Shown: positions 1 through 45,383, counted from the first letter of the stretch. The stretch is 64,000 nt of DNA from Bacillota bacterium (GCA_046483165.1 JAWODQ010000096.1:7667-71666); one strand, 5' to 3'. Numbers and translations: made by a program. Notes: generated from the sequence alone by a model not told the origin.

Positions 1-563
1 GAATTCGTGTGATCGGATGCCCATCTAACAAACAATGCCCTCCCCTAGCGACGCCGATCGTGGCGAATCGCTTGCAACCAACCGGCCACTATCGAGGTCA
101 GAAGGGATTGAGAACGGCAACCGGATCGGATGCGAATCCCCGCAAATGTGCCAAGTCTCATGCAATAGAGTACCATTTAGAGAAAATCTATCAAGAAGAG
201 AAGTCGTTCGCCCCCCTGTCGCGCCGTAATGGTTCTTACCGTCGCAGGTACGAGAACGTATCGGGCCCGCGAGCCGTGAAGGACCATATTGGGGCTTCAG
301 CTCCCGGAGTATTGGCCTGGTGGTAATTGCCTCCAACTTGAACCTTATCCGCAGCTATTGTAGCTTCTAAATGAACTGAGCCGATGAAATCGAAGATGAA
401 TTGTTACCTGGAGATTTGTAGTCACGAAAATCCACGGCGACACCCGATCTTCGTCCCTCTCTCATTGAAACCGGAGCTCGGGTCCCCAGATGAGCGGCCA
501 AAAATCGAGTGAAGCGAAGTCGTTTGACCGACCAGATTACCGCAATCAGGAGGGTCAATATTT

Positions 564-1655
564 ATGTGGAAAACCAAATTCAGGCACATGCCACTGATCA
601 TGATCACCATCTCACTTGCCGTAGTGATAGTTGCAGTTATGGGGTGTGCCCAGGCGTTGCAGGAAGACGAGGGAAAGGATCCAATAATCTTCAGCGACCG
701 ACAATGGGAATCAGTTTGGGCCGCGAATGAGATCGCTCAGTTCATCATCGAGGAGGGCTACGAACATCCGACGGAAACCGAGACCGTTTCCAGCGAGGCC
801 TTCCAGATCGGGATGGAAAAGGGAGATGTCGACGTCGATATGGAACTTTGGCGGATGAATCTTCCGGAATGGTACGATGAAGCGACGGAAGAAGGTTTCT
901 TGATCGATGTCGGACCGATATATGAACGATCAGTGCAGGCGTGGTACGTGCCGCGTTACGTCGTCGAGGGAGATGAAGAGCGCGGCATTGAGCCCATGGC
1001 TCCGGATCTCGAGACGGTTGAGGATCTCAAAGACTATGCCGACTTGTTCGAGGACCCCGATGACCCCGACCGCGGCCGGTTCATAAACGGCATTAGCGGG
1101 TGGGAGGTTACCGAGGTCAACTCCGTCAAGATGGAGATCTATGGTTTGGACGAGCACTACAACATCGTCGAACCCGGAAGTGCGAGCGCTCTGGATTCGG
1201 CCATCGCCAGCGCTTTCGAGGCGGGTGAACCCCTGTTCTTCTACTACTGGGAGCCCACATGGTTGCTCGGTAAATACGATGTGGTCCGTATAGAGGAGCC
1301 CGAGTACGATCCCGACGTACGAAAGCAGCTGGACCTGATCGTGGAAGGGGAACTCTCTGTCGATGAAGTCGACGAAGCCTGCGCGTTTATCGAAACCGAT
1401 ATCAGGACCGGCGTGCATTCCAGCCTGCAGGATAGGGCTCCGGGGGTTTTCGAATTCCTGGAAGAAATGGAGATCGGGACGGACCCCATCAATCAAGTCC
1501 TAGCCTACATGCAGGATGAGGAAGCGGATCCCGAAGAGGCCGCCATGTGGTACTTCGAAAACTTTGAGGAAGACTGGAGATCCTGGTTACCCACCGATGT
1601 AGAAGAAAACGTGGAGGATGCATTGAGCGAGGCCGGAGTTGAACTTTCGGGCTAA
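564..1655 (+). CDS. Glycine betaine/proline-type ABC transporter substrate-binding lipoprotein (OpuAC/ProX family)
   Basis: 363 aa. N-terminal signal peptide with lipobox-like VMGCAQ. The WEPTWLLGKYD region is typical of glycine-betaine binding proteins. SD AGGAGGG sits 8 nt upstream of the ATG. No ATPase or permease gene is adjacent. Confidence 0.75.
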   Translation: MWKTKFRHMPLIMITISLAVVIVAVMGCAQALQEDEGKDPIIFSDRQWESVWAANEIAQFIIEEGYEHPTETETVSSEAFQIGMEKGDVDVDMELWRMNLPEWYDEATEEGFLIDVGPIYERSVQAWYVPRYVVEGDEERGIEPMAPDLETVEDLKDYADLFEDPDDPDRGRFINGISGWEVTEVNSVKMEIYGLDEHYNIVEPGSASALDSAIASAFEAGEPLFFYYWEPTWLLGKYDVVRIEEPEYDPDVRKQLDLIVEGELSVDEVDEACAFIETDIRTGVHSSLQDRAPGVFEFLEEMEIGTDPINQVLAYMQDEEADPEEAAMWYFENFEEDWRSWLPTDVEENVEDALSEAGVELSG

Positions 1656-3334
1656 GAGTGATGTGGTAACTCCGCGATTCCCACAATGTCGATGCTGCGA
1701 GGTGCCGGGCGTATCCCCAGTCCGGCACCATTACGTCAAAGCGAATGATCATCCTCGATGATTCGTCTCCGAAGAGTCCAAAGTGATCAACCGAGAGCTG
1801 TTGAGCGCGTCGCGTAGTCATCGCCCGTGGGTATTGGGGGTTATTGAAAATGGAAGGAGGTGAGGGCGTTCGCAATTTGGCGATAGGTGAGGCTTGTGCG
1901 GGGGAGGCTCTTGGGTGACGAAAAACAAAGGAGGCCGGGTGAAACGTCCCGACCTCCAAAGGATTTTACCTACGGGATCGTCATCAGAGGAAAAAACTCT
2001 GACCTAAGAGGGGAGGTGCTTCACTCGCGGTTTGCGAAACGGTCACTGTATCCCAAAACTGGGTTGAAGTGGTCCTTACCAGTTCCATGTTTTCGGCACC
2101 GAGCACTTCCTGTTGCCCACAGCCCGTACTCGAGACGATGAACATTATTACGAGGTAACCGAGGAGGGCCACGAGAAACGCTAGGACTACTCTTTTTGAA
2201 TTGATACTAACCAGCCTCCTTCTGTTGCCGATTACACGGTAATGCCGGAATCGGCTCGTGTTTGGGTTTGCAGGTATCCGTCGCGCAGCGCTAGTAGTTT
2301 TCTATTCATGAAGCCTCGCTACCATAAAGGCCAGAGCGCAGTCAGCCGAGCCCTTCAAGGTGAGGATATCGACCGAATGAACATCGCAAATACGTAACCA
2401 CGATCAAACTCGCGATTGGACCAAAACGCCGTCACACTACGAAAATACCCGAAAGGATTGATCCTGGAGCGACTACGCACACGATTGCATCAATATCAAG
2501 CGTGCGCCGACACCATTAATTACACTCGGTCTCGATTCAAGCTCCGTACGCAAGCTAGCACCTGGTTTGTCCGGAGTCAAGACGAGAAAAGGTCGCCACG
2601 CGAGAAGCAGGGAGAATCAATGGTGAACGCCAAATTCTCGCGGAAGGTGCGAGAATTTTCCGTATCTTATATCATATTGATACAAACATATGCATGTTTA
2701 CCTATCCTTTGATAAGAAATCCAGAGTCTGGCTGGCTATCAACGACCGAAAGCACAAGCGCGATCCAGTGGCATCGCGTTCTTCGGGTTTTCGTTGGGGC
2801 GGAAGGTGCGAGCGAGCCCAAACTCATCGCACACTCGATACGGAAGTGAAGTCGTACTTCCACATAGGCACGTGATTAAATGCGTATATGCTTGTTTTCT
2901 GTAGTTGTCAGGATTCTATAGCCTGCCACACAACCTGTGCATCTATGATCCCTTGCACAATCCTGTGTGAGGGATTCAAGTATTGTTAGGGTCCAGGCTT
3001 TGAGTCCTCGACCGTGGTGATAACAATTGTTATACTCAATTGGGATTGTCGTCATGAGTCTTTCTAAATCTATTGCGATATGCGCCGACCGGGAGCGTTG
3101 GCCTTGTGCCATCATTGCGGAGTACGCGGCCGGGATCTATCTGTTCTGCATAGGGATGCGCTTATGTTGCTTTGCGAAGGAGGGATTTGGTAATAGCGCC
3201 TGGTCGTTCGTCGTCAAATGGGCGCGGTCTCTCAAACAATCTCCAATCTTTTTGGTTGTCGAGGTATTTGGCGCGGATGGGTACGTTCTCTGAGACTGAC
3301 CTTTGTTGATTCGTATCGATGGGAAGGTGAGATC

Positions 3335-4555
3335 ATGGATTTTAGCGATGCACCAAGATGGGCATGTGTTCTGGCATTGATTCTTGCGGTTGCTGTGGGT
3401 GTCGGAGTGGGCTATGCCGTTACTTCCTCTGCGGCGCAGGAGATGCCCGAGTCACCGGAGGGTATTACCGAAGCTCAGTTGCAAGAGATGCAGGGGGATT
3501 TGGAGCGAAACTTCAGTGAAGAGATTTCCGCCCTCGAGGGCCGCCTGGAGTCCCTCTCTACTGAATCTGGAGTGAGTGAAGTCCCCGACCAACCCTGGCC
3601 GTACGTGAAACTCGATGTGGAAGAGGCGCGTAAACGTGGACATCAGGGGTACTACGAGAAGAACTGTGGATACGGGCCCTTCTACGCTATCGTGTCAATG
3701 CTCCGAGAGGAGATCGGATATCCGTACGATCAGATTCCCATGGGCACACTCTCCATCGGTGGAGGCGGTCTGGTGGGTGAAGAGTCCGTGTGTGGTACCG
3801 TGCTCGGAACCGTGACGGCCATCAGCCTCATAGTTGGTGACGACTATGGTCCCCTCGCCCGAGAGGTCATCGACTACTACAAGGAGACGCCTTTGCCAAC
3901 CGACACGGCCAACGAATACGCGAAAAACCACGAGTTCTTGGTGGACGATTATCTTAGCGATGCAGTTTTGCCGCAGAGTATCGCCGGTAGCGTGGACTGT
4001 GATAAGTCTAAAGAAGTGTGGATCGACGAATCGGGTTACGAAATGGGAGACGATGAGCGTAAGGAGCGCTGCGCGAGGATGACCGGCGATATGGCCGCAA
4101 AAGCCGTCGAGGTTCTTAACGCCTGGTATGATGAGATGAATAGCGATGCCGAGGCGAACGTAACCGATATCTTTGCCGAAATCTTTCCCGAAGCCGACTT
4201 CGAACTACTGGAAAACGAAGTCTATGAGGCCGTCGAGGGTGGAGAAGCCGTCGGTTATGCCACCATCGGGGAATGCCAGGGACACGAAGACATCATTTCC
4301 GTGGCCGTAGGTGTCGATATCGATGGGACCATACGTGGCGTGAGAATCGTCGATCACGCCGAGACGGCGGGCATAGGGGATGTCATCGAGGACGGAGAAT
4401 TCCTCGATCAGTTTGAAGGGCTCTCCGAGACGGAAATTGCAACCACGGACGAAGGTGGCGCGATCGATGCCATCTCCGGCGCTACAGTGAGCACCGAAGC
4501 AGTTGTTGGGATAGTGGCCGATAGAGTAGAAGTCCTGCAGGATTACCTCGATTAG
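3335..4555 (+). CDS. Membrane-anchored C_GCAxxG_C_C domain protein with C-terminal FMN-binding (FMN_bind) domain
   Basis: Internal ATG at 3335 (MDFSDAPRW...) follows SD GGAAGGTGAG and is followed by one hydrophobic anchor helix. The central region (CGYGPFYAIVSML...GGGG...CGTV) resembles the C_GCAxxG_C_C family. The C-terminus (DAISGATVSTEAV) is an FMN_bind domain carrying the SGAT flavinylation-type motif. Confidence 0.7.
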   Translation: MDFSDAPRWACVLALILAVAVGVGVGYAVTSSAAQEMPESPEGITEAQLQEMQGDLERNFSEEISALEGRLESLSTESGVSEVPDQPWPYVKLDVEEARKRGHQGYYEKNCGYGPFYAIVSMLREEIGYPYDQIPMGTLSIGGGGLVGEESVCGTVLGTVTAISLIVGDDYGPLAREVIDYYKETPLPTDTANEYAKNHEFLVDDYLSDAVLPQSIAGSVDCDKSKEVWIDESGYEMGDDERKERCARMTGDMAAKAVEVLNAWYDEMNSDAEANVTDIFAEIFPEADFELLENEVYEAVEGGEAVGYATIGECQGHEDIISVAVGVDIDGTIRGVRIVDHAETAGIGDVIEDGEFLDQFEGLSETEIATTDEGGAIDAISGATVSTEAVVGIVADRVEVLQDYLD

Positions 4556-4589
4556 TATCGGGCGAAGCCGATAGGTAAGTCCGGGAACT

Positions 4590-4626
4590 AAAGTGTGGCG
4601 TCCCTCGTCGAGGGACGCCACACTTT
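4590..4626. terminator. Perfect 37-nt palindrome between convergent genes, likely a bidirectional intrinsic terminator
   Basis: aaagtgtggcgtccctcg-tcga-cgagggacgccacacttt lies between the stop of the 3335..4555 gene and the stop of the cupin gene, with A/T flanks. Confidence 0.55.
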
Positions 4627-4637
4627 CAATTATTCGA

Positions 4638-5021
4638 TCAACTGCGCTCGATTTCACCGAGCCAGTCCTGCGGGACCAGGCATATGAATCGCAAGACGCC
4701 CTCGCCGGTATTCCGAATCTGGTGCTTCTCTCCTCCCGGAACCAGCATGGTGTATCCGGCCCCTATGGGTTTTTCTCCCTCCTGGGTCGCGACCGTTCCC
4801 GCGCCTTCCAGGATGAATATTTCGTGTTCCCACCAGTGTTCGTGGTGAAAAGTGGCCCGGCCAGGTTTCACTTCAAAAACCCGTAGATTGAAATGGGGTG
4901 CGCCATCGTCCGGTCCCACAACCACGCGCATGGTTACCCCGTCGGCGACCTGTGTTTCTTCCACATCCGTGAAATGCCTTCTAATGATCATGTTGCCTCC
5001 CATCGCGTGTCGTTTCGACAT
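4638..5021 (-). CDS. Cupin domain protein
   Basis: The C-terminal ~115 aa carry cupin motifs (HxH...E...H-like FHHEHWWEHEIFILEG...GGEKHQIRNTG). I chose the start at the Met giving MSKRHAMGG; an alternative ATG at 4991 is possible. Confidence 0.65.
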   Translation of the reverse strand: MSKRHAMGGNMIIRRHFTDVEETQVADGVTMRVVVGPDDGAPHFNLRVFEVKPGRATFHHEHWWEHEIFILEGAGTVATQEGEKPIGAGYTMLVPGGEKHQIRNTGEGVLRFICLVPQDWLGEIERS

Positions 5022-5379
5022 ATCTAACCTGGCCAGAGTTTCTCGAAGGGAGAGTTTGAATCCTGCAGAGTAGTTTTCGCGGACTGTGGTCCTAAAGAAT
5101 GGGAGGGCCTGACGAATTGGCTGCGATTCATCGATGTCGGATACAATTTGAGTAGGATTCTCTTCTAGGGCTAGAAGAGAGATGATTGGCCGATTACATG
5201 GACGAATACTCCGGGAATATGCGGTATTCGTGACGAATGGCATAAAGGAGATGGCACATGTTTCGAGCTGGATGACCGAGATCTGGATGAATGTCCCATT
5301 GTGCCGGGTGACAGGATGTTTAATCAAAAATGGGTGCTACGCATTCAGTCAAATCGATCGCGGCCTTAAGTCAGAACAG

Positions 5380-5903
5380 TGTGCTCATAAGTACATTACT
5401 GCGGACTTTGGGGAGAAGAACCGCGAAGCGGAAATTCATATGGAGTGCGCGATCCAAGTGGCTCCGTCGATACGTAAGACGACTGGATTGTCGAGGTTGG
5501 GTTTGAACAAGCTGTCCGAGGTGGTGCACCTGCACCACTCCGGCAATGCAAAGATCCGCGAAGGCATCCTGTCGGAAAAGGAGGCGCTGACGCCAGAAGA
5601 ATAGGACACTATAAAGGCATATGCGAAAAAGGGATACCGTCCCATGCGATCGACGGGCTAATTGGTATAGGTGCCGGGGAGATATTGCCCCACCACGATA
5701 GGTGGGAGGGATCCGGATATCCCCGAGGAGTCCCAAGTAACGACATCCCGCTTCGCGCCAGGATAGTCGGCATCGCCGACGTTTATGAGGTTATGATCAA
5801 CGGAGGTCCGTTTCGGTGTCCCGTCCGCTCCGGCCCTGAAGGAATTGAGGGCGCACGCGGGGAAGCAATTGGACCCGGAGCTGGTAAGCGTAACCTTCGA
5901 ATG
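5380..5903 (+). pseudogene. Decayed HD-GYP phosphohydrolase gene (in-frame stop plus at least two frameshifts)
   Basis: The ORF 5182..5604 ends in an HD-domain-like stretch (LGL...VVHLHHSGNAKIREGILSEKEALTPEE) with HD replaced by HH, then hits a TAG stop. A different frame at 5685.. gives HHDRWEGSGYPRGV...IPLRARIVGIADVYEVM (HD-GYP signature). A further +1 frame at ~5826.. gives ALKELRAHAGKQLDPELVSVTFE, the conserved HD-GYP C-terminus. Confidence 0.5.
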
Positions 5904-6093
5904 ATTGAGCCGATCTGAGGGGAAATGAATTCGGCCGTGGAAGATTCGGAGCAGCGACTTGGATGGCCGGGCCTGGAGCACACGGGGCAAGCGGTGAATT
6001 CCCATAGGCATCGAGGGACGATGTAGGGGCAGGCATAGCCTCGAGTTCGCCACAGTCTATTGCAGCCCATTATCTGAGGGGACTGAGTACCTT

Positions 6094-6765
6094 ATGGAGG
6101 CGACACCGGAGATAACAAAATTGGCGGCGGCGCTGTTGATCGGTGGCCTCATCGGGATAGAGCGATCTTTCGGAGATCATCCCGCCGGCTTGAGGACTCA
6201 CATACTGGTTTGCACCGGCGCGACTTTGATCATGATAATATCCCTCGATGTTCCCACGCGTTTCTTCGGCCTCACGGAGAGTGATCCCGCAAGGATTGCC
6301 GCTCAGGTCGTAAGCGGGATCGGGTTCCTGGGGGCTGGCACCATTCTGCGAGAAGGAGCAACGGTACGCGGATTGACCACCGCGGCGAGTCTTTGGATCA
6401 CCGCGGCCTTGGGATTGGCCGTCGGAGCCGGTCTGTACTTGGAGGCCGGGGTTGGCCTCGCCCTGACTCTCATAACTCTTCATCTGCTTTACAAGCTCGA
6501 AGTCTATTTGGCCGTAAAACGGGCTAGAGGTCAACTCGTGATCGTGGCCGAGGAGGGTCCGGGTCTTCTCGGAGAGGTCGCAGGTATTTTGGGGAACTAC
6601 CGGATAAACATAACGGGAGTGGAGTTCGGCCCAAAAAGTGAAGCTCGGGTACGGATCAGATTCGACATTCAGGTTCCCTCGGGTACGGATACCAGCGACG
6701 TTATCGGAGACATCGTCGATATACCGCGCGTTAAGGAGGTGTCCATGGAAGATGAGCGACACTGA
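6094..6765 (+). CDS. MgtC/SapB family membrane protein with C-terminal ACT-like domain
   Basis: 223 aa. GIERSFGDHPAGLRTH...VSGIGFLGAGTIL matches the MgtC family. A soluble C-terminal domain follows. Confidence 0.8.
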   Translation: MEATPEITKLAAALLIGGLIGIERSFGDHPAGLRTHILVCTGATLIMIISLDVPTRFFGLTESDPARIAAQVVSGIGFLGAGTILREGATVRGLTTAASLWITAALGLAVGAGLYLEAGVGLALTLITLHLLYKLEVYLAVKRARGQLVIVAEEGPGLLGEVAGILGNYRINITGVEFGPKSEARVRIRFDIQVPSGTDTSDVIGDIVDIPRVKEVSMEDERH

Positions 6766-6777
6766 CCCATTAGTCTT

Positions 6778-7627
6778 TCAAATCTCGGCCCCCATGGTGG
6801 CTCGAATTGCATATCCGATGAAGAGGGTCAGGATGGCCACTCCGAGACTTATGGCCGTCATCTCCAGGAACCTGGCGCGAAAATCGTAGTCTTTGGCCAC
6901 CGATATGTAGTAGTCGAAGACCGCAATTATAAGTATCGCCGCCAGCACGGTTGTGGCCAGGGCCCGATAGTGATTGCCCATCGTCAGGTAGGGCAGAATG
7001 AGGATGATTGCGGTCACTATGTAGGTCATCCCCGTGTACGCGGCGGATTTCAAGGTCCTTTGCGCGTGATCTTCCGTCTTCTGCGACAAATACTCCGAAG
7101 CCGCCAGGGATAACGACGCGGCGACTCCCGTGATCAAGCCCGACAACGCGATCAATCCGGTATTTTTGCAGCGCGAAAATCAAGCCCGCCAGCACTCCAG
7201 TGAGCTCTACCAGAGCATCGTTTAAGCCTAGTACCGCCGATCCGGCGTATTCCAATCTCTCTTCTTCGAACATTTCTATTAGCCGGGCCTCGTGAAGATC
7301 CTCCTCCCCGGCAATTTGTGCCCCTCCGGCGACGTGGCCGTCGGCCTCAGGATAATTATCCTGGGCTCGTTCTTCACCGCGTTCCAGCAATTTGATTGCA
7401 AAGGTCAATCCCAGGAACCTCGCCATCCAGTAGAATTTGAGCACCATTACTCTGTCCGGTGCGACGTCGCGGCGTGTATTCTCGCGCCAGAAATCGTAAT
7501 GCCGACGTTCGTCCCGGGCGTTGCGCTCGAGGATTTCTCCGTTGTCTCCCGGATTTAGATCCGCCAGTCGGGAGTAGATCTCGTATTCAGTGATCTCGTT
7601 TTTCTGGAATTCGAGCACCTGATCCAC
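6778..7627 (-). pseudogene. Membrane-bound ferritin-like/VIT1 (MbfA-like) gene interrupted by a frameshift
   Basis: The N-terminal ferritin-like (erythrin) domain is in the 6770..7627 frame up to ...GLNDALVELTGVLAGLIFALQ. The VIT1 transmembrane domain (ITGVAASLSLAASEY...) continues in the 6778..7155 frame. Removing one A from the A5 run (complement of ttttt at 7163..7167) restores a continuous sensible protein. Confidence 0.55.
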
Positions 7628-7893
7628 GATTTCGGCTGCCAGCGCACTCGGATGTGTCGGTTCACTAAACTTCGTTTCCTCCTCGATAGCTGTCGAACAA
7701 TGCCTCTGGAAATCGCCACCACGAGGGAGTAAAGATCCCTTGTCTCAAGTGACATTGGCCCGTCTCGAACGGCTCCCGATCAGATTATGGCTCCCCGAAA
7801 AGAGCGTTACCACCCGGTAGGTGGGATGAGGTTCGGTATCGTGGAGGAACGAAAGCCGGTCGGTAGAATAGCTCCCCGAAGAGGTGATCGCAC

Positions 7894-8715
7894 ATGCAGA
7901 TGCGTGTCGGGATACAGGGATGTGGAACCATAGGATCCTATCTTTTGGAAAGCCTCTACTCCGGTGCCATAGAAGGAGCACATCCCGTGGTCGTTATGGG
8001 GAGAAATAACCGTTCTCGCGGGCGTGAGAGGGTAAGAGATCTCGGAATTCCCTGGGTGGCGGATGCGGAGGCACTGATAGATCATCGCCCCGACGTAGTC
8101 GTCGAGGCGGCATCGCACCAGGCGGTTCGCGAGAATGCGCTGCAAATCATCGAGGCCGGAATAGACTATATACCACTCAGCCTGGGAGCACTTGTAGATT
8201 CCGATCTCCTGCTGCGGCTGTCCGATGCGGCGGAGAAAAGTGATTCCCTATTCTACGTTCCTTCGGGAGGAATCGGTGGTCTCGATGCTCTGGCCCAGGC
8301 AATGTGCGGGAAGGTCCACTCGGTGACGATGACGTCGAGGAAGCCTCCCCGGGCCTGGAAGGGAATCGAATACGTGGACAGAATGGAAGTTAATCTGGAT
8401 TCCCTGGAGGAACCATTCATCCTTTACGAGGGACCGGCCAAAGACTGCGTGAGGGAATTTCCCCAGAATATAAACATTGCAGCCGCCCTGAGTCTGGCGG
8501 GCGTGGGCTTCGACGATACCAGGATCGAAATAGTCGCCGACCCCACCGTGACGGTAAATAAACATGAAATTGTCTGTGAGGCGGAATCCGGGAGATTCAG
8601 TATCGTAATGGAAAACGCCCCGGTTCCCGAAAACCCCAAGACGACATATATGGCGTGCCTGAGCGCCGTGGCAGCGGTGCGTCGCCTCCGCGGCAATGTT
8701 CGCATCGGTACCTGA
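7894..8715 (+). CDS. Aspartate dehydrogenase domain-containing protein (NadX-like NAD(P)-dependent oxidoreductase)
   Basis: 273 aa. N-terminal Rossmann GCGTIGS motif and an Asp-DH-like C-terminal domain. SD GAGGTG upstream. Confidence 0.65.
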   Translation: MQMRVGIQGCGTIGSYLLESLYSGAIEGAHPVVVMGRNNRSRGRERVRDLGIPWVADAEALIDHRPDVVVEAASHQAVRENALQIIEAGIDYIPLSLGALVDSDLLLRLSDAAEKSDSLFYVPSGGIGGLDALAQAMCGKVHSVTMTSRKPPRAWKGIEYVDRMEVNLDSLEEPFILYEGPAKDCVREFPQNINIAAALSLAGVGFDDTRIEIVADPTVTVNKHEIVCEAESGRFSIVMENAPVPENPKTTYMACLSAVAAVRRLRGNVRIGT

Positions 8716-8898
8716 ACGCGTGGAGAAGTGCGATTCTCCGATGACCAACTTCCCGCCGTATCGTCAGTGTGCAAAGTGCGAGGATAAGCCGTACGAGTGT
8801 GGCAAATGCCAGCGGGTGAAACCGGTTGCGAACGATACGATGACTACTCCGGATTATTGGCAGAAGACGGCATCTCCTGGATTGTGAATGGTCCGAAT

Positions 8899-9354
8899 CT
8901 AGGGGATGTCCTCAACCTCTTCGAGCCATCCATGTCGACGCAGTACGGAAAGGGCCAAACGTTCCGCCGTCGTCACGAATTCCGCACACTTCATCTTGCG
9001 TTCCGGGCTGGAGAAATAGGTTTTGCGTTCGTCTGCTTCGCAGAACATGTCTTCGACGGGAATGAGACGGTTACAATCTCTGGCCCCGTGTTCTCCCTCG
9101 AAAAGCGCGAGGAGTTCTCCGACCATACGTTTGAAGTCACCTCCGCGCCTGGTATCGTAGGATCTCAGCTGTGCCCGGGCCCCCATGCCCATGACGGCGC
9201 CGGTGAGGGCTCCACATACGTCGCCACTTCCACCGATTCCACCACCAAAGCCAGCAGCGAGACTATTGCAGGCGTCAATTTCGCCGATTACTCCGGCGAG
9301 TACAGATTCGGCACAGTTATACTCGCCGGACAAGAAGACGTCTCGGGCGTTCAT
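8899..9354 (-). CDS. C_GCAxxG_C_C family protein (putative redox-active, unknown function)
   Basis: 151 aa: YNCAESVLAGV...CNSLAAGFGGGIGGSGDVCGALTGAVMG matches the family signature. Paralogous to the N-terminal domain of the 3335..4555 gene. Confidence 0.75.
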   Translation of the reverse strand: MNARDVFLSGEYNCAESVLAGVIGEIDACNSLAAGFGGGIGGSGDVCGALTGAVMGMGARAQLRSYDTRRGGDFKRMVGELLALFEGEHGARDCNRLIPVEDMFCEADERKTYFSSPERKMKCAEFVTTAERLALSVLRRHGWLEEVEDIP

Positions 9355-9495
9355 AGGCTCTCCCTACTCTCAAATTGATCGGTAATGAACACACAGATTC
9401 GCCACGCGGTCATTACATTTCCTGCCCGTGGCCGCCACTTCACCCGGAGGTCCGCCGGATCCATATGATTTGGCAGACATTAGATATCCCCTGGG

Positions 9496-10416
9496 ATGGA
9501 TAAAAGAAACGGGATCGCGACCTCTTTCCCGGGGGAGAATCTGTCGGGTAACATGGGGGAGGAGCCTCCTGGAGGGAAGTGGTTGATCATCGAATCCGAT
9601 CGGAATAACTCCGTTAGCATGCTCACTGTGAGGTTGATGTTTTTGCTCATCGCGTCGGTGGGGTATCTTTATCTCTCCGGACTCTGGGCCGTCGCGGTAT
9701 CCTCGCAGAGCCCCACTGCGGTCGTTTTGAACATTTTGCGCCTTCTGTTGCCGGCGATAGGAGGTACGCTCGCGGCGGGGATGGGGGAGAGATGGACTCG
9801 GTCGACGCCGGGATCACTGCTTTTTTGGGGATTTACGGCGGCCTGGATCCTGATCGTATTCCTTCCCACCCTGGGTGTTCCGATACCCGGTATAAGGATG
9901 TCGGCGATACCGGGAATGGTTTGTTTGCTCGGATGGTTCGCCGGCCTGAGCCCCACGGTACCCGAGGAACGATTCGACTGGGGGCGGATCGTCGCGTTGG
10001 TTGCGATCGCCGTTGCCGCTCTCATCGCCCACAATTTCCTGGTGGGAGATTGGCAGATGCACATAGTAAGTGGAGTCGGCGGAGCATTCCTTAGGCTCCT
10101 GGGGGGCGTGGTGGCTCTATTTGCCGCGGGAGCCCTCTTCGAAGTACTCGCTCCCGGGGGAGATATCGCCGACGGGCGACGGGTTGCCCTCGTGGCGATG
10201 CTGTTGTGGCTGGTTCCACTGGTAACGATCGCCTACGACCTGGTCACACTCGATATAACGAATACGGTTTATGGCATGGCGCCGTGGCCGGATACCTGGA
10301 GGGCATTTTATGCTCCCATCATGTTGGCGATAATCAGCGGGCCGGTGGGCACCATGGCGGTTCGAGGATTTAGGGCAGGATCTTTTCACGAAGACGACGG
10401 TCCATTCCCCGGATAA
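9496..10416 (+). CDS. Hypothetical polytopic membrane protein
   Basis: Long ORF with about 7 hydrophobic segments and no recognisable motif. The start is uncertain; internal Met MLTVRLMFLL is possible. Divergent from the C_GCAxxG gene. Confidence 0.45.
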   Translation: MDKRNGIATSFPGENLSGNMGEEPPGGKWLIIESDRNNSVSMLTVRLMFLLIASVGYLYLSGLWAVAVSSQSPTAVVLNILRLLLPAIGGTLAAGMGERWTRSTPGSLLFWGFTAAWILIVFLPTLGVPIPGIRMSAIPGMVCLLGWFAGLSPTVPEERFDWGRIVALVAIAVAALIAHNFLVGDWQMHIVSGVGGAFLRLLGGVVALFAAGALFEVLAPGGDIADGRRVALVAMLLWLVPLVTIAYDLVTLDITNTVYGMAPWPDTWRAFYAPIMLAIISGPVGTMAVRGFRAGSFHEDDGPFPG

Positions 10417-10474
10417 GGCGAATGGACCGATGGAATCTAAGCGCGCGGCAGCGACGATACGTAGGCGCGAATTC

Positions 10475-10903
10475 TCATTCGATGTCGACATCCACAATCT
10501 GGCCGCGCAGGGATTCCTTCAGTGGCAGAGATATCCTGAGGACCCCGTTATCGAAGCGAGCCTTAATGCTCTCCACCTTCTCCACCTCGGGAGGCACCGG
10601 GAAGGTGCGCTGGAACCGCCCGTACCGGCGTCCCATGTGGAGGTAGTCGTCGGTGTTAACTTCCTCATCACGCTGGATTTCGCCTTTGACGATCAGACGA
10701 TCGTTCTCGATGCGTACGCTGATGTCATCCTTACTCAATCCCGGCAGTTCGATGTCGTAATGGAGGGCATTATCCTTTTCGTAAATATCCGCCCTTCCGA
10801 GGGCCGTACCGAACAAACCTTCTCCGGTCAAATCACCGAAAAGCCGTTCGAAACGATCTGGCATCTTCAAAGCGTCTTCCCAAAGGCTTGGGAGCAGAGA
10901 CAT
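10475..10903 (-). CDS. Hsp20/alpha-crystallin family small heat-shock protein
   Basis: Alpha-crystallin domain (DIYEKDNALHYDIELPGLSKDDISVRIENDRLIVKGE...RFDNGVLRISLP). Start placed at the Met (MSLLPSLW) preceded by SD TAAGGAGGGA at 8-nt spacing. Confidence 0.85.
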   Translation of the reverse strand: MSLLPSLWEDALKMPDRFERLFGDLTGEGLFGTALGRADIYEKDNALHYDIELPGLSKDDISVRIENDRLIVKGEIQRDEEVNTDDYLHMGRRYGRFQRTFPVPPEVEKVESIKARFDNGVLRISLPLKESLRGQIVDVDIE

Positions 10904-10951
10904 ATCTCGATCCCTCCTTATCGATATCTGAAGGTCTTCGATCATCTTTGA

Positions 10952-10978
10952 TTAGCACTCTCCTTAGGGGAGTGCTAA
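10952..10978. promoter_or_regulatory. CIRCE operator (HrcA binding site) in the hsp20 leader
   Basis: TTAGCACTC-tccttaggg-GAGTGCTAA is a perfect 9-N9-9 match to the CIRCE consensus. It lies ~50 nt upstream of the hsp20 start and just downstream of the predicted -10. Confidence 0.8.
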
Positions 10979-10988
10979 TTCACTTATT

Positions 10989-11017
10989 ATTATGGTTCGC
11001 TCACGATTTTGAGTCAA
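10989..11017 (-). promoter_or_regulatory. Sigma-A-type promoter for hsp20
   Basis: On the minus strand: TTGACT (11012..11017 rc), 17-nt spacer, CATAAT (10989..10994 rc). CIRCE lies immediately downstream. Confidence 0.5.
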
Positions 11018-11304
11018 CATTTCCATATGGCAATGTGAGATCCTGAATACGGATTGGGAGCGATATACTACAAATAGAATCTCAAGATATCCTGTGGCGC
11101 TTCTGCACACGAAGTCTCACACCCTCGATCGCTTCGCGGGTTCTCGGGTTCTCGATATCCGGTGGGGGAATTCCTTCTTTTTTGGGTAAGGTAAGCTCAG
11201 AGGCGAACTTTTTGTGTCGGGATTCGTCTGTAGATATGCGTGTCAGAGATGGGAAAAGATTTCCGCAATGTCAGGTCATAGTTGAATTGAAAGGGGTATC
11301 AGGT

Positions 11305-12603
11305 ATGTTTAAAAAGATTACGGCAGCAATGTTATGCACGGTGTTTCTGTTCGCGGTCGGGGCGGGAGGAGTATTCGCAGCGGAGCACGAGATCGATTGG
11401 GAGATCGTGGATTCGGAGGACGCCCCGCAAGAGGTCCAGACGTGGCTCCAATCCAACGTCGAAGAGAGAGGTGTCTATCTCCTCGGTGCCGGTGATGTGT
11501 GCTACCTACTCATAAGCTGGGGTGAAAAACCCACCGGCGGTTACGTCCTCGACGTCGAGGACGTCGGGTGGCATCTCGAAGAAAACGTCCGAGTTAACGT
11601 CAATCTCAGTGAACCCGATCCCGATGACGTCGTGACGCAGGCACTGACCTACCCTCACGCGCTGCTCGCGCTGGAGAACGGTGACGAGACCGTAATGGTC
11701 AATTTCACTGGCGCCGACTGGTTAGAAGGGGAAGTTGCCGAGGTATCGGAAGATGATCCCTCCATAGTGCTGCGGGCCTTGACTGGCGAAGAAGAAGTCG
11801 CGCCAAATCCGCTGAGAGTGGAGGGTCGGGCCCGCGTTTTCGAGGCCACTTTCCAGGTGGTGGTGGAGGACGGACATTATCATCTCAGTGCGGATACTCT
11901 CACGGCGGCCGTGGCCGGTCCCGAGTGGGCCGAGTTCGCCCTGGTCATACCCTACGCCGCCCCGACCAATCCCAGCGGCATGCTTATCGGATCATACACG
12001 GATGCGCAATCGGGGGATTTGGTGGAAGAGGCACAAGTTCCGCTGTCCTTCGGTAACGCTTCGGAACCGCTGGATGACATTCGGGGTCACTGGGCCGAAG
12101 CGTCCATACGTCTCGGAGTCTCGGCGGGCTTCATAGATGGTTATCCCGAGGGCGATTTCCGTCCTGAGAACCGGGTCACGCGCGCGGAGTTTCTCAAGAT
12201 GCTCGTCGCCTCGCAGACCGATCGGGAGGACGAAAGTGACGCCTCCGTACCCTTCGAAGATGTGTTGGGACACTGGGTTGAACCGTATATGAGATGGGCA
12301 GTTCAAGAGGGATGGGTTCCCGAGGGAGAATTCGGTGATGCCTTCAGCCCTAATTCCGTCATAACCCGGGAAGAGATGGCACTGTTGTCCGCGATGGCCG
12401 CCGGTCTCAGCGCCTCCGAAGAGGCTCCCGATTTCGCCGACGCGGAGGATATCGATGAGGGTATTGCTGGCTGGGTACAAGCTGCCTCCGAAGAGGGCCT
12501 GCTCGTCGGATATCCCGACGGCACTTTCGCGCCAAAGTCCGGTCTGAAGCGTTCTGAAGCGGTCACGGTAGTATGGCGTGCCGTACGGCATCTGGATGAG
12601 TGA
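11305..12603 (+). CDS. S-layer homology (SLH) domain protein with N-terminal PrcB-like domain
   Basis: Signal peptide MFKKITAAMLCTVFLFAVGAGGVFA. A PrcB_C-like segment (YLLGAGDVCYLLISWGEKPTGGYVLDV). Three C-terminal SLH repeats (FxDxxxHWAxxxI..., FEDVLGHWVEPYM..., FADAEDIDEGIAGWV...). SD AAAGGGG upstream. Confidence 0.8.
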   Translation: MFKKITAAMLCTVFLFAVGAGGVFAAEHEIDWEIVDSEDAPQEVQTWLQSNVEERGVYLLGAGDVCYLLISWGEKPTGGYVLDVEDVGWHLEENVRVNVNLSEPDPDDVVTQALTYPHALLALENGDETVMVNFTGADWLEGEVAEVSEDDPSIVLRALTGEEEVAPNPLRVEGRARVFEATFQVVVEDGHYHLSADTLTAAVAGPEWAEFALVIPYAAPTNPSGMLIGSYTDAQSGDLVEEAQVPLSFGNASEPLDDIRGHWAEASIRLGVSAGFIDGYPEGDFRPENRVTRAEFLKMLVASQTDREDESDASVPFEDVLGHWVEPYMRWAVQEGWVPEGEFGDAFSPNSVITREEMALLSAMAAGLSASEEAPDFADAEDIDEGIAGWVQAASEEGLLVGYPDGTFAPKSGLKRSEAVTVVWRAVRHLDE

Positions 12604-27893: not shown

Positions 27894-28427
27894 ATGAATA
27901 GTTTCGATGTCTGTCGCTGTACGGAAGTACCCACGCGGCACCTGTCACCGCCCTCGGTCGTTACCTCGGGTGAACGAGGGCAGTTTGACCCGGCGGATCC
28001 GGGGGGGCTGATTCCTCTGATGCAGGCCACTCAGGAGGAGTTCGGATATCTGCCGCGGTCAGAAGTTGCCCGCATCGCGGATTATCTGGGATTGTCCGAA
28101 GCTCGAGTGTACGGCGTGGCGACTTTTTACAACCAATTTCGTCTCGAACCCCTGGGCAAGAATTACGTTCAGATTTGTACCGGGACCGCCTGTCACGTGA
28201 AGGGGGCGGCCGAGATACACTCGGTACTGCGGGCCGAACTCGGCCTGGAGGGTGAGAGTACCACGACCCGAGATGGGCTCTTCACTTTGGATACGGTCGC
28301 CTGCCTGGGTGCCTGCAGTATGGCTCCCCTGGTGAATGTCAACGACGAGTTTCACGGACACATGACACCGCAAAAAGCCCTCAAATTGATTCGCGGCCTT
28401 CGGTCGAAGGAGCGTGAAGCGCGATGA
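27894..28427 (+). CDS. hydC: [FeFe]-hydrogenase complex NuoE-like [2Fe-2S] subunit (HydC/HndA type)
   Basis: Thioredoxin-like 2Fe-2S fold (CTGTACHVKGA...CLGACSMAP). The ATGA overlap with the next gene suggests coupling. Confidence 0.8.
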   Translation: MNSFDVCRCTEVPTRHLSPPSVVTSGERGQFDPADPGGLIPLMQATQEEFGYLPRSEVARIADYLGLSEARVYGVATFYNQFRLEPLGKNYVQICTGTACHVKGAAEIHSVLRAELGLEGESTTTRDGLFTLDTVACLGACSMAPLVNVNDEFHGHMTPQKALKLIRGLRSKEREAR

Positions 28428-30274
28428 ATCGAGAAGATAGCGGCTACACCACAATCATCGTCGGTACCGGTACCTGCGGATTGGCCGCGGGAGCCCGCCA
28501 GATCTACGATTACTTCGCGGAACGGATCGCGGAATCGGGCTCGGAAGATCTCGTCCTCAAAAAGACCGGTTGTCTCGGCTATTGCACCATGGAACCCATG
28601 GTAGACGTCGAGTTGCCGAAATGGCCCCGGGTGTCCTTCGGTCCGGTAACACCGGAGAACGTCGAGTTTCTTTGGGACATGATTGCCAGTGGGGGCGCCG
28701 TGCCGAAGGACTTCATTTTGGGCACGCACTCTCCGGCGGACGGCATTCATGAACTTCACGATGTCCCGCTGCTTTGGGACACGCCCTTCTTTCGTCGGCA
28801 AAAGAGGCTGGTCTTGCGCAACTCGGGCATCATAGATCCGGAATCCCTCGAGGAATACGTGGGGGTCGGAGGGTACGAGGGTCTACGATCTGCTCTAAAG
28901 ATGTCTCCCAAAGAAGTGATCGAGGAGGTCAGGCGAGCCGGGCTGCGCGGCCGCGGCGGAGCCGGTTTCCCCACCGGGTTGAAATGGCAATTCGCTCACG
29001 AAGCGGAAGGTGATGAGAAATTTATCATCTGCAACGCGGACGAAGGCGACCCCGGAGCATTTATGGATCGCTCCATACTGGAAGGTGACCCGCACGCGGT
29101 CATAGAGGGTTTGGTCATCGCCGCCTACGCCATCGGAGCCTCGGAGGGGTACGTATACTGCCGCGCCGAGTATCCCCTCGCCATCGCGCGTCTTACGGGC
29201 GCGATATCGCAGGCCAAAAGTGCCGGCTATCTCGGAGACGACATCGGCGGCAAGGGATTTTCTTTCAATCTTAAGATTAAAAAGGGTGCCGGGGCTTTCG
29301 TCTGCGGTGAAGAGACTGCGCTGATCGCCTCCATTGAGGGAAGACGAGGTATGCCCCGTCCCCGTCCACCCTACCCGGCGCAATCGGGCCTTTGGGGTAA
29401 GCCGACCAACATCAACAACGTCGAGACTATCGCGAACGTCCCGCTGATTTTGGGCGGGGGAGCCGAAGCATTTCGTAACTACGGGACGGAGAACAGTCCC
29501 GGCACCAAGGTATTCGCTCTCGCGGGGAAGGTTAAGCGAAGCGGCCTGGTCGAGGCTCCCATGGGCATGCCCCTGCGGGATATCATTTTCGATATCGGTG
29601 GTGGTGTGGCGGATGACAGGGAGTTCAAGGCCGTCCAGATAGGTGGGCCTTCCGGGGGATGCCTGCCCGAGGAGCTTTTGGATACCCCGGTTGACTACGA
29701 CTCACTGGTCGAAGTCGGAGCCATGATGGGATCCGGCGGTATGGTGGTCATGGATGAAGATACCTGCATGGTCGACGTGGCTCGTTTCTTCCTGAACTTC
29801 ACCGCCTCCGAATCCTGTGGCAAGTGCCTACCCTGCCGCGAGGGCGTGGCGCGTTTGCGGGAAACCCTAAACGGTATCGTGAGAGCTCACCGCGACGAAT
29901 CCCCCGAGGAGAGCCTGCTACGCTTCCAGGGGGTCACGATGATGGAAGAACTCGCGGAAGTCATTCAGGGGACCGCAGCGTGCGGATTAGGCCAGACGGC
30001 TCCGAATCCGGTCTTGAGTACCCTCAAGTATTTCCGCGACGAGTACGATGCCCACGTGTTCGAAAGGCGCTGTCCCGCCGGCGTATGCTCTGCGCTGTTG
30101 GAGTACTACATCGATCCCGACGTTTGTACGGGCTGCGGCCTGTGCGTGCGCAAGTGTCCCGACGACGCCATAATCGGTGAGAAACGCCACCCGCACTACA
30201 TCGCGGCGGACAAATGCATAAGTTGCGGTACCTGCCGCCAGTTCTGCCCCTTCGGTGCCATCAAGGTAAGGTAG
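28424..30274 (+). CDS. hydB: [FeFe]-hydrogenase complex NuoF-like flavoprotein subunit (HydB/HndC type; FMN + NAD(H) binding, Fe-S)
   Basis: N-terminal [2Fe-2S] thioredoxin-like domain (GTGTCGLAAGA). NuoF core (GRGGAGFPTGLKW, ...ESCGKCLPCREG). Two C-terminal ferredoxin-like Cys clusters (CTGCGLCVRKCP, CISCGTCRQFCP). Confidence 0.85.
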   Translation: MNREDSGYTTIIVGTGTCGLAAGARQIYDYFAERIAESGSEDLVLKKTGCLGYCTMEPMVDVELPKWPRVSFGPVTPENVEFLWDMIASGGAVPKDFILGTHSPADGIHELHDVPLLWDTPFFRRQKRLVLRNSGIIDPESLEEYVGVGGYEGLRSALKMSPKEVIEEVRRAGLRGRGGAGFPTGLKWQFAHEAEGDEKFIICNADEGDPGAFMDRSILEGDPHAVIEGLVIAAYAIGASEGYVYCRAEYPLAIARLTGAISQAKSAGYLGDDIGGKGFSFNLKIKKGAGAFVCGEETALIASIEGRRGMPRPRPPYPAQSGLWGKPTNINNVETIANVPLILGGGAEAFRNYGTENSPGTKVFALAGKVKRSGLVEAPMGMPLRDIIFDIGGGVADDREFKAVQIGGPSGGCLPEELLDTPVDYDSLVEVGAMMGSGGMVVMDEDTCMVDVARFFLNFTASESCGKCLPCREGVARLRETLNGIVRAHRDESPEESLLRFQGVTMMEELAEVIQGTAACGLGQTAPNPVLSTLKYFRDEYDAHVFERRCPAGVCSALLEYYIDPDVCTGCGLCVRKCPDDAIIGEKRHPHYIAADKCISCGTCRQFCPFGAIKVR

Positions 30275-30287
30275 GAGGAGAGGCCAA

Positions 30288-32042
30288 ATGTCAAAAATAA
30301 GGATGACCATAAACGAGAGACCCGTCGAGGTCGAATCCGGTGCCACGATCCTGGAGGCGGCCCGGCGCGCTCGAGTAAACATCCCCACTCTGTGTCATAT
30401 CGACGGATTGGAGCCCACGGGTTCGTGCCGAATCTGTTCGGTGGAGGTCGAAGGGCGGGCTAACCTGGTACCCTCCTGTGCCGAGCCGGCCTCGGATGGA
30501 ATGTCGGTTCGTACCAACAGCCCACGGGTCCTGACGGCCCGGCGCCATATGATTCAGTTGCTCCTGGCCAATCATCCCGACGATTGTTTGTACTGCGCGC
30601 GGGGTGGAGAATGCGACCTCCAGGACCTCGCCCAGAATGTGGGCATCAGGGAACGCGCCTGGCGACGCGGGAGACACCGGAGTCATCCCGTCGACCGCAG
30701 CAGCCCGAGCGTGGTTCGAGACCCGGAAAAATGCATTCTCTGCGGTAAGTGCGTGCGAGTGTGCGACGAAATTCAGGGTGTGGCTGCCATCGATCACGCC
30801 GGACGGGGTTTTGATAGTTTTGTCCTTCCCGCCTTCGATGACGAGCTGGCGTCTACGATTTGCGTAAACTGCGGACAGTGCGTCGCCATATGCCCCACCG
30901 GTGCCCTGGTGGAAAGAAACGACCTGGCCCGAGTCCGCCACTTCCTATCCGATGAGTCGCTGGTTACCGTGGTGCAGACGGCTCCGGCAGTCCGAGCGGC
31001 ACTGGCGTGGGAGTACGGTCTATCGGGTCGGGAGGCCGAAGCGAAGATGGTGACAGCGCTGCGGGATATGGGATTCTCCTACGTATTCGATACCCAATAC
31101 AGTGCCGACCTCACCATAATGGAGGAGGGTACGGAACTTCTGGATCGCATTCGAGAAGGTGGCCCTCTGCCGCTGATAACTTCCTGTTCGCCCGGATGGA
31201 TCAAGTTCGCAGAGCACTTCTATCCCGAACACCTGGACAATTTGTCCACGTGTAAGTCACCGCAGCAGATGCTCGGTGCCATGGTCAAGAATTACTGGGC
31301 GGAAAAGCAGGGGATCTCGCCGAAAGACATACGCGTGGTGTCGGTGATGCCCTGCACCGCCAAGAAGTTCGAGGCGGAGCGCCCCGAAATGGAAACGGTG
31401 GGCGGACGAGACGTCGACGCGGTGATAACCACCCGGGAACTGATATCCGCCTTCGCAGAGATGGGTCTGGATTTCGACGACGTGGAGGAGGGCCAATTCG
31501 ACGGCTTCCTCGGCGCCTCTTCCGGCGCCGGCGCGATATTCGGCACCACCGGTGGAGTGGCCGAGGCGGCATTGCGGACCGTCTATAATCTCCTGGTGGG
31601 GGAGAATCCGGGAGCAGATGATTTCTCCGCAGTACGAGGACCCGACGGCATAAAGGAGATAGAGATCTCCCTGCCGGAGGGAGGTTCCGTAAGAGGCGCC
31701 GTGGTACACGGGTTGCGTAACGCTCGCCGGGTCATGGACGCCATTTCTTCGGGCCAGGCGAACTACGCCTTCGTGGAGATAATGGCCTGCCCCGGCGGCT
31801 GTGTCGGTGGTGGCGGACAACCTTACGGCAACGACCGCGAGCGCACCGCGAAACTGGCGGCAGAATTGTACGAAATTGACGAGACGAGGACGATTCGCTT
31901 CTCGCACGAGAACCCGGATGTAATTCGGGCCTATCGAGAATACCTCGAGGCTCCGGGGGGGCCGGAGAGTCACCGGTTGTTACACACCACTTACCGCCCC
32001 CGGTCCCGGTATCGGGCGGAGGACGACGACCTGCTTGGCTAG
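30288..32042 (+). CDS. hydA: [FeFe] hydrogenase catalytic subunit (M3-type, HydA/HndD-like)
   Basis: N-terminal 2Fe-2S. His-ligated 4Fe-4S. Two ferredoxin-like 4Fe-4S clusters. H-cluster motifs L2 MPCTAKKFE and L3 EIMACPGGCVGGGG. The L1 motif reads TSCSPGW, with Ser where the second Cys of TSCCPxW is expected. Confidence 0.9.
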   Translation: MSKIRMTINERPVEVESGATILEAARRARVNIPTLCHIDGLEPTGSCRICSVEVEGRANLVPSCAEPASDGMSVRTNSPRVLTARRHMIQLLLANHPDDCLYCARGGECDLQDLAQNVGIRERAWRRGRHRSHPVDRSSPSVVRDPEKCILCGKCVRVCDEIQGVAAIDHAGRGFDSFVLPAFDDELASTICVNCGQCVAICPTGALVERNDLARVRHFLSDESLVTVVQTAPAVRAALAWEYGLSGREAEAKMVTALRDMGFSYVFDTQYSADLTIMEEGTELLDRIREGGPLPLITSCSPGWIKFAEHFYPEHLDNLSTCKSPQQMLGAMVKNYWAEKQGISPKDIRVVSVMPCTAKKFEAERPEMETVGGRDVDAVITTRELISAFAEMGLDFDDVEEGQFDGFLGASSGAGAIFGTTGGVAEAALRTVYNLLVGENPGADDFSAVRGPDGIKEIEISLPEGGSVRGAVVHGLRNARRVMDAISSGQANYAFVEIMACPGGCVGGGGQPYGNDRERTAKLAAELYEIDETRTIRFSHENPDVIRAYREYLEAPGGPESHRLLHTTYRPRSRYRAEDDDLLG

Positions 32043-32063
32043 ATTCGGGAAGGAGGGTCCAGG

Positions 32064-34139: not shown

Positions 34140-34205
34140 ACCGGCGGGGTACGCAATGTCCGCTAGGGGCGAAAGATACCCGCAATAATTACTGGAGGTG
34201 GGAAG

Positions 34206-43496: not shown

Positions 43497-43500
43497 AGAT

Positions 43501-45336: not shown

Positions 45337-45383
45337 GGCGAACGGACCGGTTTTGTGACCTCGGCCCGATGGGGGGAAGCTGA

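Follow-up and report, generated by a model that had tools for sequence, protein, structure and literature searches.

A predicted surface-anchored fusion of a split-Soret cytochrome c-like four-cysteine domain with an RnfG-like FMN-binding domain in a Bacillota genome

The protein encoded at 3335..4555 (+) is best described as a version of split-Soret cytochrome c that has no haem, is predicted to be wired by flavin and probably lies at the cell surface; it is itself neither an RnfG protein nor a split-Soret cytochrome. Its novelty lies in an uncharacterized combination of parts that are known already, and it does not represent a new type of system. Throughout, "the window" denotes the whole stretch of 64,000 nucleotides that was analyzed, and positions are counted from its first letter.

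The gene and its product

The open frame spans positions 3218 to 4555 on the + strand and is intact up to its end at 4555; translation from the ATG at 3335 yields a coding sequence of 406 amino acids plus stop (3335..4555, +) for the anchored split-Soret-like/FMN-binding fusion protein. A strong ribosome-binding site, GGGAAGGTGA (3321..3330, +), identified by direct reading of the sequence, lies 4 nt 5' of this start codon. The start residue is the same in an 80%-identical orthologue (locus L010), and the nucleotide homology with the L010 locus begins only at 3321, that is, at the ribosome-binding site. A codon-by-codon comparison with the same orthologue gave a dN/dS ratio of 0.07, which marks 3335..4555 as a real gene under purifying selection. 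With regard to regulation, an Rfam search of positions 1..12000 returned no match to an upstream regulatory RNA, and promoter and terminator scans gave results no better than those from shuffled sequence.

The 406-residue product is identical to the NCBI protein MFO7942145.1 from a MAG labelled 'Bacillota bacterium', where it bears the name 'C-GCAxxG-C-C family (seleno)protein', and it is very acidic, with aspartate and glutamate together amounting to 21% of its residues. All of the strings quoted from the protein in a preliminary description of this DNA (CVLALILAVAVGVGVGYAV, NCGYGPF, GGGG, VCGTV and ISGATVST) were found in it.

The four-cysteine domain

The first of the two domains of the protein (residues 84-267; 3584..4135, +) had been described as a C_GCAxxG_C_C-type domain of unknown function. 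Membership of that family is supported by Pfam (PF09719; 39.6 bits against a gathering cut-off of 27, E 6.6e-10, residues 118-259), but the domain is not an anonymous one, being specifically the N-terminal four-cysteine domain of split-Soret cytochrome c according to NCBIfam, the structure 1H21, the alignment of relatives and Foldseek. The best NCBIfam match for residues 84-267 is the split-Soret cytochrome c model NF047622 (E 4.6e-34, model positions 44-221 of 275), with 118 bits against a whole-protein cut-off of 400. In a PDB sequence search, residues 88-267 align with residues 19-192 of the 247-residue 1H21 at 33% identity (E 1.2e-23). The AF2 model of the protein has a mean pLDDT of 78.8 and a pTM of 0.54, with mostly >85 for the two globular domains, and a Foldseek search with it ranks 1h21_A first (E 1.5e-10, target TM 0.64, rmsd 3.0). 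TIGR01909 scores 23.4 bits against a cut-off of 47.4, the match being confined to residues 118-176; by such curated tests the product is only a marginally canonical C_GCAxxG_C_C protein.

Alignment A1 contains 21 fusion proteins and their four nearest non-fused relatives, which are split-Soret-like cytochromes, and four cysteines are invariant in all 25 of these sequences. In the product of 3335..4555 they are Cys111 (codon 3665..3667, the first invariant cysteine, within NCGYG), Cys153 (codon 3791..3793, the second, within VCGTVLG at the 'GCAxxG' position), Cys222 (codon 3998..4000, the third) and Cys246 (codon 4070..4072, the fourth, within ERCAR), all on the + strand. An iron centre is named in the title of PDB entry 1H21, and the non-haem iron centre of the Desulfovibrio split-Soret protein was reportedly recognized as a [2Fe-2S] cluster by Abreu and co-workers in 2003. 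Decades after they were first described, neither split-Soret cytochrome c nor the C_GCAxxG_C_C family at large is known to have been assigned a function. Split-Soret cytochrome c mutants of D. alaskensis showed no phenotype (PMC4215793).

Canonical C_GCAxxG_C_C proteins (PF09719/TIGR01909) are putative redox proteins of approximately 140 amino acids that have the four-cysteine signature in common with the fusion, whereas the domain of the fusion is approximately 40 residues longer, predicted to be exported, and fused. One canonical member is encoded in the window at 8899..9354 (-) (Pfam E 4.6e-19), and since it has no signal sequence it appears to be the ordinary cytoplasmic form. This gene had previously been regarded as a stand-alone paralogue of the fusion's domain; it does belong to the same family, but BLASTP of its product against the four-cysteine domain of 3335..4555 gave an insignificant similarity (E 0.3), by which a close paralogue is ruled out and the protein is only a distant family member, with no sign of a functional link to the fusion gene.

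Exchange of haems for a flavin domain

In alignment A1, the non-fused relatives have a helix ending in 'LNAW' that is followed by two CxxCH sites, and in the fusions an RnfG-like domain begins at the same point. Relatives P0022-P0025 have two CxxCH sites each; the product of 3335..4555 has none and is thus not a cytochrome. When the four-cysteine domain alone was searched, without a profile, against 1.84 billion representatives, 450 matches were obtained at E <=1e-3, including 241 at <=1e-10. Haem-type proteins predominate among the 150 best representatives, of which 102 contain at least one CxxCH or CxxxCH site and no [ST]GA[ST] motif (88 with exactly two sites), and another two contain CxxCH along with an incidental TGAS. 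SGAT with no haem motif was found in four of the 150, and neither motif in 42, comprising fragments and stand-alone exported forms.

In addition, there is a second and distant fusion group (P0139, P0163, P0153 and P0179), with Tat signals, in which the four-cysteine domain is linked to an FMN_bind domain of another, short type (DAVSGATKTS); Pfam confirmed three of these four proteins. As FMN_bind occurs at this position in two separate groups, the replacement of haem by flavin appears to be a recurrent event. The exchange in one lineage, taken together with the second group and its different FMN domain, points to the cysteine domain as the conserved functional core of the family, which haems or flavin only serve to wire.

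The split-Soret cytochrome c (Ssc) of Desulfovibrio desulfuricans ATCC 27774, represented by 1H21, is extracytoplasmic and has a homologous four-cysteine domain, of which the fusion keeps all four family-invariant cysteines. Unlike Ssc, the fusion is devoid of CxxCH sites, carries an FMN-binding domain in the place of the dihaem tail, and has a non-Tat membrane anchor where Ssc has a Tat signal. Interchange of cytochrome and flavinylated modules was described for other extracytosolic systems by Meheust et al. 2021 (PMC8238504), and the evolutionary logic is the same in both cases, with a conserved redox module being wired via either c-type haems or an ApbE-flavinylated domain. Neither split-Soret proteins nor PF09719 are mentioned in that flavinylation survey or its accessible supplements; they are likewise unmentioned in the 2024 follow-up to the survey. 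The fusion would constitute a new architecture among flavinylated extracytosolic electron carriers, found in uncultured bacteria, and it offers a simpler, haem-free protein for finding out what the four-cysteine core does.

The FMN-binding domain and its flavinylation motif

Residues 274-403 (4154..4543, +) form an RnfG/NqrC-like FMN-binding domain. Pfam FMN_bind (PF04205) matches residues 316-396 with 53.1 bits against a gathering cut-off of 22 (E 5e-14), residues 274-403 align in both sequence and fold with the RnfG chains of solved Rnf complexes (PDB 9eri_G, 8rb9_G and 7zc6_G), and RnfG and NqrC are the Foldseek matches that follow 1h21_A. The recognition motif of ApbE is D-x-x-[S/T]-G-A-[S/T], with FMN being placed on the last residue (PMC12052999). 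The sequence D378-A-I-S-G-A-T384 (4466..4486, +) fits this motif completely, with Thr384 (codon 4484..4486) as the predicted FMN acceptor, and across the 21 fusions A383 and T384 never vary, while S381 and G382 are kept in at least 90%. The FMN_bind domain with an SGAT flavinylation motif that had been proposed earlier is thus upheld, and the motif and its conservation suggest that Thr384 is covalently flavinylated. The earlier statement that the window encodes no flavin transferase also holds, as ApbE (PF02424) was absent from the 52 window ORFs scanned by Pfam, which included every ORF of at least 200 amino acids. Nor was ApbE found near the gene in the related loci examined in detail, so its absence from the window is uninformative.

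The resemblance to RnfG allows another reading, namely that the protein is a variant RnfG subunit whose extra domain is accessory and which docks on an Rnf (or Nqr-like) complex with genes at another site. The best named matches of the C-terminal half are RnfG models (TIGR01947/NF041840, E 1e-21) and RnfG chains, and some sources call homologues 'RnfG'. The fold, the D-x-x-S-G-A-T motif and the presence of one N-terminal anchor are common to the fusion and to RnfG and NqrC, the periplasmic subunits of Rnf and Na+-NQR that carry covalent flavin; like them, the fusion is expected to depend on ApbE. However, its scores lie far under the family cut-offs (75.3 against 102 and 77.1 against 230 bits), it is encoded outside any rnf or nqr operon, no rnf gene adjoins it here or in those related loci that were studied closely, and several of its relatives are lipoproteins without a helix. 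Moreover, approximately 240 residues, made up of a stalk and the extra redox domain, keep the FMN domain away from the anchor and off the membrane, whereas the FMN domain of Rnf sits on membrane subunits. A role as an Rnf subunit is therefore very improbable.

Anchor, stalk and orientation

The protein has a single hydrophobic segment (Kyte-Doolittle maximum 2.54, residues 11-29) coinciding with a helix at residues 8-30 of the AF2 model, in agreement with the single N-terminal anchor helix of the preliminary description. The anchor itself (residues 9-30; 3359..3424, +) is predicted from helix, hydropathy and charges to be oriented N-in/C-out, and has no twin-arginine motif. Beyond it lies an acidic helical stalk or linker (residues 46-77; 3470..3565, +), which AF2 models as a long helix at low confidence (pLDDT 55-62) and in whose place the lipoprotein sisters of alignment A1 have linkers rich in Gly and Ser. 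Such a stalk or linker between the anchor and the domains is more in keeping with a protein tethered at the surface than with a subunit of a membrane complex.

The net charge is 0 ahead of the anchor helix and -6 over the 30 residues that follow it. In all full-length fusions the charge is net negative over the 30 residues past the helix, and the N-terminal flank is neutral to +4, except for +8 in one fusion whose N-terminus is considerably extended. In no fewer than five sister proteins the helix gives way to a lipoprotein signal with a lipobox cysteine at its end, and one relative has a C-terminal T9SS secretion tail. The cytochrome relatives carry Tat signals (RRxFL) together with haem sites of the c type, whose maturation takes place outside the cytoplasm. 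An outward orientation of both domains, as had been predicted earlier, is likely in view of the charge bias, the lipoboxes of the sisters and the Tat-exported cytochrome relatives.

Conversely, the helix might be inserted N-out, or not at all, with both domains residing in the cytoplasm and a cytosolic ApbE carrying out the flavinylation. Little credence can be given to this arrangement, considering the -6 flank behind the helix and its net negative counterparts in every full-length fusion, the lipoboxes of the sisters, the Tat-exported c-type cytochromes among the nearest non-fused relatives, and the FMN domain of RnfG and NqrC, which is periplasmic in the solved complexes. It would agree with the lack of an export signal in most short C_GCAxxG_C_C proteins, including that at 8899..9354, with the lack of net positive charge at the N-terminus of the fusion and with the existence of cytosolic ApbE enzymes (PMC12052999), and the problem of exporting an Fe-S centre would vanish.

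A feature overlooked in the preliminary description is the missing Tat motif, in which the protein differs from most relatives of its four-cysteine domain. Its N-terminus (MDFSDAPRWACV...) contains no RR, just 'PRW', and just three proteins of the clade (P0011, P0013 and P0020) have RR at this place, the sisters having KR, NR or NS; Tat (RRxFL) signals are found on most of the best 150 domain representatives. As the twin-arginine motif is not conserved in the clade, insertion via Sec is the simplest reading. An Fe-S centre is normally built in the cytoplasm and then exported in a folded protein via Tat, a route in keeping with the RR signals of most relatives. A Sec-inserted protein would be unable to carry a cytoplasmically assembled cluster with it, and so the four cysteines may hold something else in this case. 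It may be that they are without a cluster here, that a cluster is acquired outside, or that the export is unconventional. The protein thus raises the concrete question of whether a surface protein inserted via Sec can have an Fe-S centre at all and, if so, by what means.

Proposed electron relay

The most likely mechanism, and one that is reasonably probable, is an electron relay outside the membrane from FMN to the four-cysteine centre. The protein would act as a redox protein on the outer face of the cytoplasmic membrane, held there by the N-terminal helix and the acidic stalk, and an ApbE-type flavin transferase from elsewhere in the genome would load FMN covalently on Thr384 after export. 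The FMN would take over the job of the haems in the cytochrome form, accepting electrons from a membrane or surface donor and handing them to the four-cysteine centre, or else receiving them from it. The four-cysteine centre, as the conserved business end of the family, would in turn meet an extracytoplasmic partner or substrate. In this scheme the flavinylation itself, the cofactor on the four cysteines, the way in which the electrons flow and the partner in the cell are all putative. Its core, an anchored and outward-facing substrate of ApbE type fused to a cysteine-rich redox domain, is the reading already offered in the preliminary description, and at the level of sequence it is supported by domain searches, motif conservation and topology evidence. 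Genes for ApbE, a membrane electron donor or an acceptor are lacking in the vicinity, both here and at those related loci that were studied closely, so that the proposed circuit draws no support from gene context. As long as no partner or substrate has been identified, the practical impact is modest.

Electron relay outside the membrane through flavinylated FMN_bind domains is known from the Listeria extracellular electron-transfer system, in which PplA is an FMN-binding surface lipoprotein. This system is described in PMC8238504. Similarly to PplA, the fusion would be a surface-tethered protein of a monoderm with an FMN_bind domain of the flavinylated type. PplA, unlike the fusion, has two FMN domains and no cysteine-rich domain, and is encoded together with a flavin transferase and membrane donors, whereas the fusion gene is isolated.

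Gene context and the DsbD_2 association

The gene at 3335..4555 is effectively solitary and has no conserved operon. Upstream in the window there is an OpuAC binding protein gene followed by 1.7 kb without convincing genes, and downstream there are genes or remnants for a cupin (on the opposite strand), HD-GYP (remnants), MgtC, VIT1, aspartate dehydrogenase and the canonical C_GCAxxG_C_C protein. Only the cupin and MgtC are common to the window and the locus of the closest orthologue, L010, and in other related loci the gene is located among housekeeping or sugar-metabolism genes. The cytochrome-type relatives adjoin the haem-attachment genes CcsA and ResB, cytochrome b561, or a 4Fe-4S protein.

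A link with glycine-betaine transport, suggested by the OpuAC gene here and an OpuAC-ABC operon upstream of the fusion gene in L003, was considered and rejected as coincidence. The two OpuACs share only 31% identity, remnants of ABC or permease genes are absent from the window, and the locus of the closest orthologue has no OpuAC.

In five Spirochaete-clade loci (L003, L008, L015, L016 and L017) the fusion gene is directly followed by convergent genes for DsbD_2 and a small anchored CxxCxxxC protein (Pfam E 5.6e-12 and 7e-19 for DsbD_2 neighbours), and a diverged DsbD_2/CxxC pair (34% identity) is located 1 kb downstream in the unrelated locus L009. Homologues of DsbD_2 or its CxxC partner were not detected by tblastn in the window, and the partners are absent from L010, the lipoprotein clade (L001/L007), the P0007 locus (L005/L006) and the Thermotogota locus L012. 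The DsbD_2 link could represent a thiol electron supply, the upkeep of reduced ligand cysteines, or a leftover from cytochrome maturation. The DsbD-associated flavinylation systems described previously consist of DsbD, DUF3570, a thioredoxin-like protein and DUF4266 (PMC8238504). The six fusion relatives are similar to them in that they adjoin a DsbD-superfamily transporter and a small exported protein with a cysteine motif, which suggests that thiol-derived electrons meet a flavinylated protein; they differ in the families involved (DsbD_2 PF13386, FMN_bind and an AF_1845-like protein), and the association is missing in the window and in several other clades.

These loci bear on the main rival to the proposed relay, a thiol-based protein in which the cysteines, being cluster-free after Sec insertion, form dithiol/disulfide pairs that DsbD_2 and the anchored CxxC protein reduce or feed, and in which FMN couples two-electron thiol chemistry to one-electron partners. 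Besides the adjoining genes in the five Spirochaete-clade loci and the diverged pair in L009, the absence of a conserved Tat motif in the clade argues for it, as do the name '(seleno)protein' given by NCBI to the wider family and a selenoprotein member listed in a review, both of which would suit reactive cysteines, and the precedent of DsbD-linked flavinylation systems such as DsbD-DUF3570 (PMC8238504). Nevertheless, the thiol-based alternative is rather unlikely, as the window and the four other loci or locus pairs named above have no DsbD_2 or CxxC partner, the four cysteines are not arranged in CxxC pairs, and the homologous domain of 1H21 has an iron centre according to the entry title. 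Moreover, DsbD_2 could equally keep cluster-ligand cysteines reduced or, given the presence of CcsA and ResB at cytochrome-type loci, be a remnant of cytochrome maturation.

The relay from FMN to the four-cysteine centre remains the preferred mechanism. A bolder proposal is speculative and decidedly doubtful. The four-cysteine domain would be a catalytic or cluster-bearing extracytoplasmic centre that is fed interchangeably by haems or covalent FMN, and the Sec-inserted clade would gain or maintain this centre outside the cytoplasm, via either post-export Fe-S assembly in sulfidic, iron-bearing sediment or DsbD_2-driven thiol chemistry. If true, either of these would amount to a way of supplying a cofactor that has not been described for surface redox proteins of bacteria, and would offer a first functional handle on the split-Soret cytochromes.

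Taxonomic distribution

Genes for pyruvate:ferredoxin oxidoreductase and for an [FeFe]-hydrogenase of HydABC type give the metabolism encoded in the window a fermentative appearance, and the ORF scan revealed no cytochrome or rnf genes; the fermentative character and the lack of cytochromes speak in favour of the proposed relay. Approximately 21 clusters of the fusion were obtained at 90% identity, all of them from uncultured genomes. Full-length matches are distributed over approximately 10 species-level MAGs of Clostridia, Thermotogota and Spirochaetaceae/Spirochaetales and one Bacteroidetes bin. Judging by isolate names, several of the MAGs that carry the fusion apparently come from soda-lake or hypersaline sediments.

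Relatives of the cysteine domain

The preliminary description had regarded the gene at 8899..9354 (minus strand) as a stand-alone paralogue of the C_GCAxxG domain in the fusion protein. Its 150-aa product is indeed a canonical C_GCAxxG_C_C protein (family match E 4.6e-19) and lacks a signal sequence; however, since it matches the domain of the studied protein with a BLASTP E-value of only 0.3, it is a remote member of the family rather than a recent paralogue.

Among relatives from outside the window, the cysteine domain occurs behind CARDB-like repeats in a protein with a C-terminal anchor (P0034), as a tandem duplicate (P0040), and preceded by a DUF5060 domain in a protein that also carries FMN_bind (P0153). 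In four metagenome contigs (L091-L094), the gene for the Tat-type fusion P0139, which combines the same cysteine domain with a short FMN_bind domain, forms a divergent pair with one for an HxlR-family regulator. This arrangement is a hint of redox- or electrophile-responsive regulation within the P0139 group.

Regions flanking the fusion gene

Upstream of the studied gene, a stretch of 46 nt (2536..2581) is 93% identical to positions 4331..4376 of L010, the locus of the closest orthologue; the surrounding intergenic DNA is otherwise unconserved relative to L010, and the stretch has no match in Rfam. Further upstream, a 62-aa ORF with a lipoprotein-like signal (MALLGYLVIMFIVSSTGC...) was read at 1984..2172 (minus strand), directly followed by a strong terminator-like hairpin of 10 pairs, including 8 G-C (1930..1957). 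Positions 2040..2268 share 80% identity with L010, which has a 65-aa gene call there.

On the downstream side, a 229-aa ORF at 4638..5327 (minus strand) contains a Cupin_2 domain confined to its C-terminal ~115 residues; its L010 orthologue is called at 114 aa, and the ORF in the window is probably over-extended. The adjacent HD-GYP-type remnant (5371..6053; HD_5 E 8e-10; motif HHDRWEGSGYP at 5685..5918) sits amid short overlapping ORFs and resembles a signalling gene that has decayed; the equivalent stretch of L010 contains PAS and GGDEF fragments.

A VIT1-family iron-transporter gene (6770..7627, minus strand) is seemingly split by a frameshift near 7155, with the C-terminal membrane half (6778..7155) matching VIT1 in one frame (E 7e-9) and the N-terminal part lying in another frame with no Pfam match. 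Some flavinylation clusters contain VIT1 genes (Meheust et al., PMC8238504); a link to the VIT1 gene of the window is not established.

Other genes in the window

The region 27894..36115 is probably a hydrogen-sensing regulatory unit. After a HydABC-type [FeFe]-hydrogenase set (NuoE-like 2Fe-2S protein, NuoF-like protein and HydA) comes a histidine kinase with a fused hydrogenase-like domain (32064..34139; Fe_hyd_lg_C, FeS, HisKA and HATPase_c), and beyond it lie a response regulator and a hybrid kinase. Spurious antisense frames of dnaK are well known, and the ORF matching 'NAD-GH' (PF10712) at 43483..45435 (minus strand), which overlaps the grpE-dnaJ interval, is probably such a frame and not a real gene.
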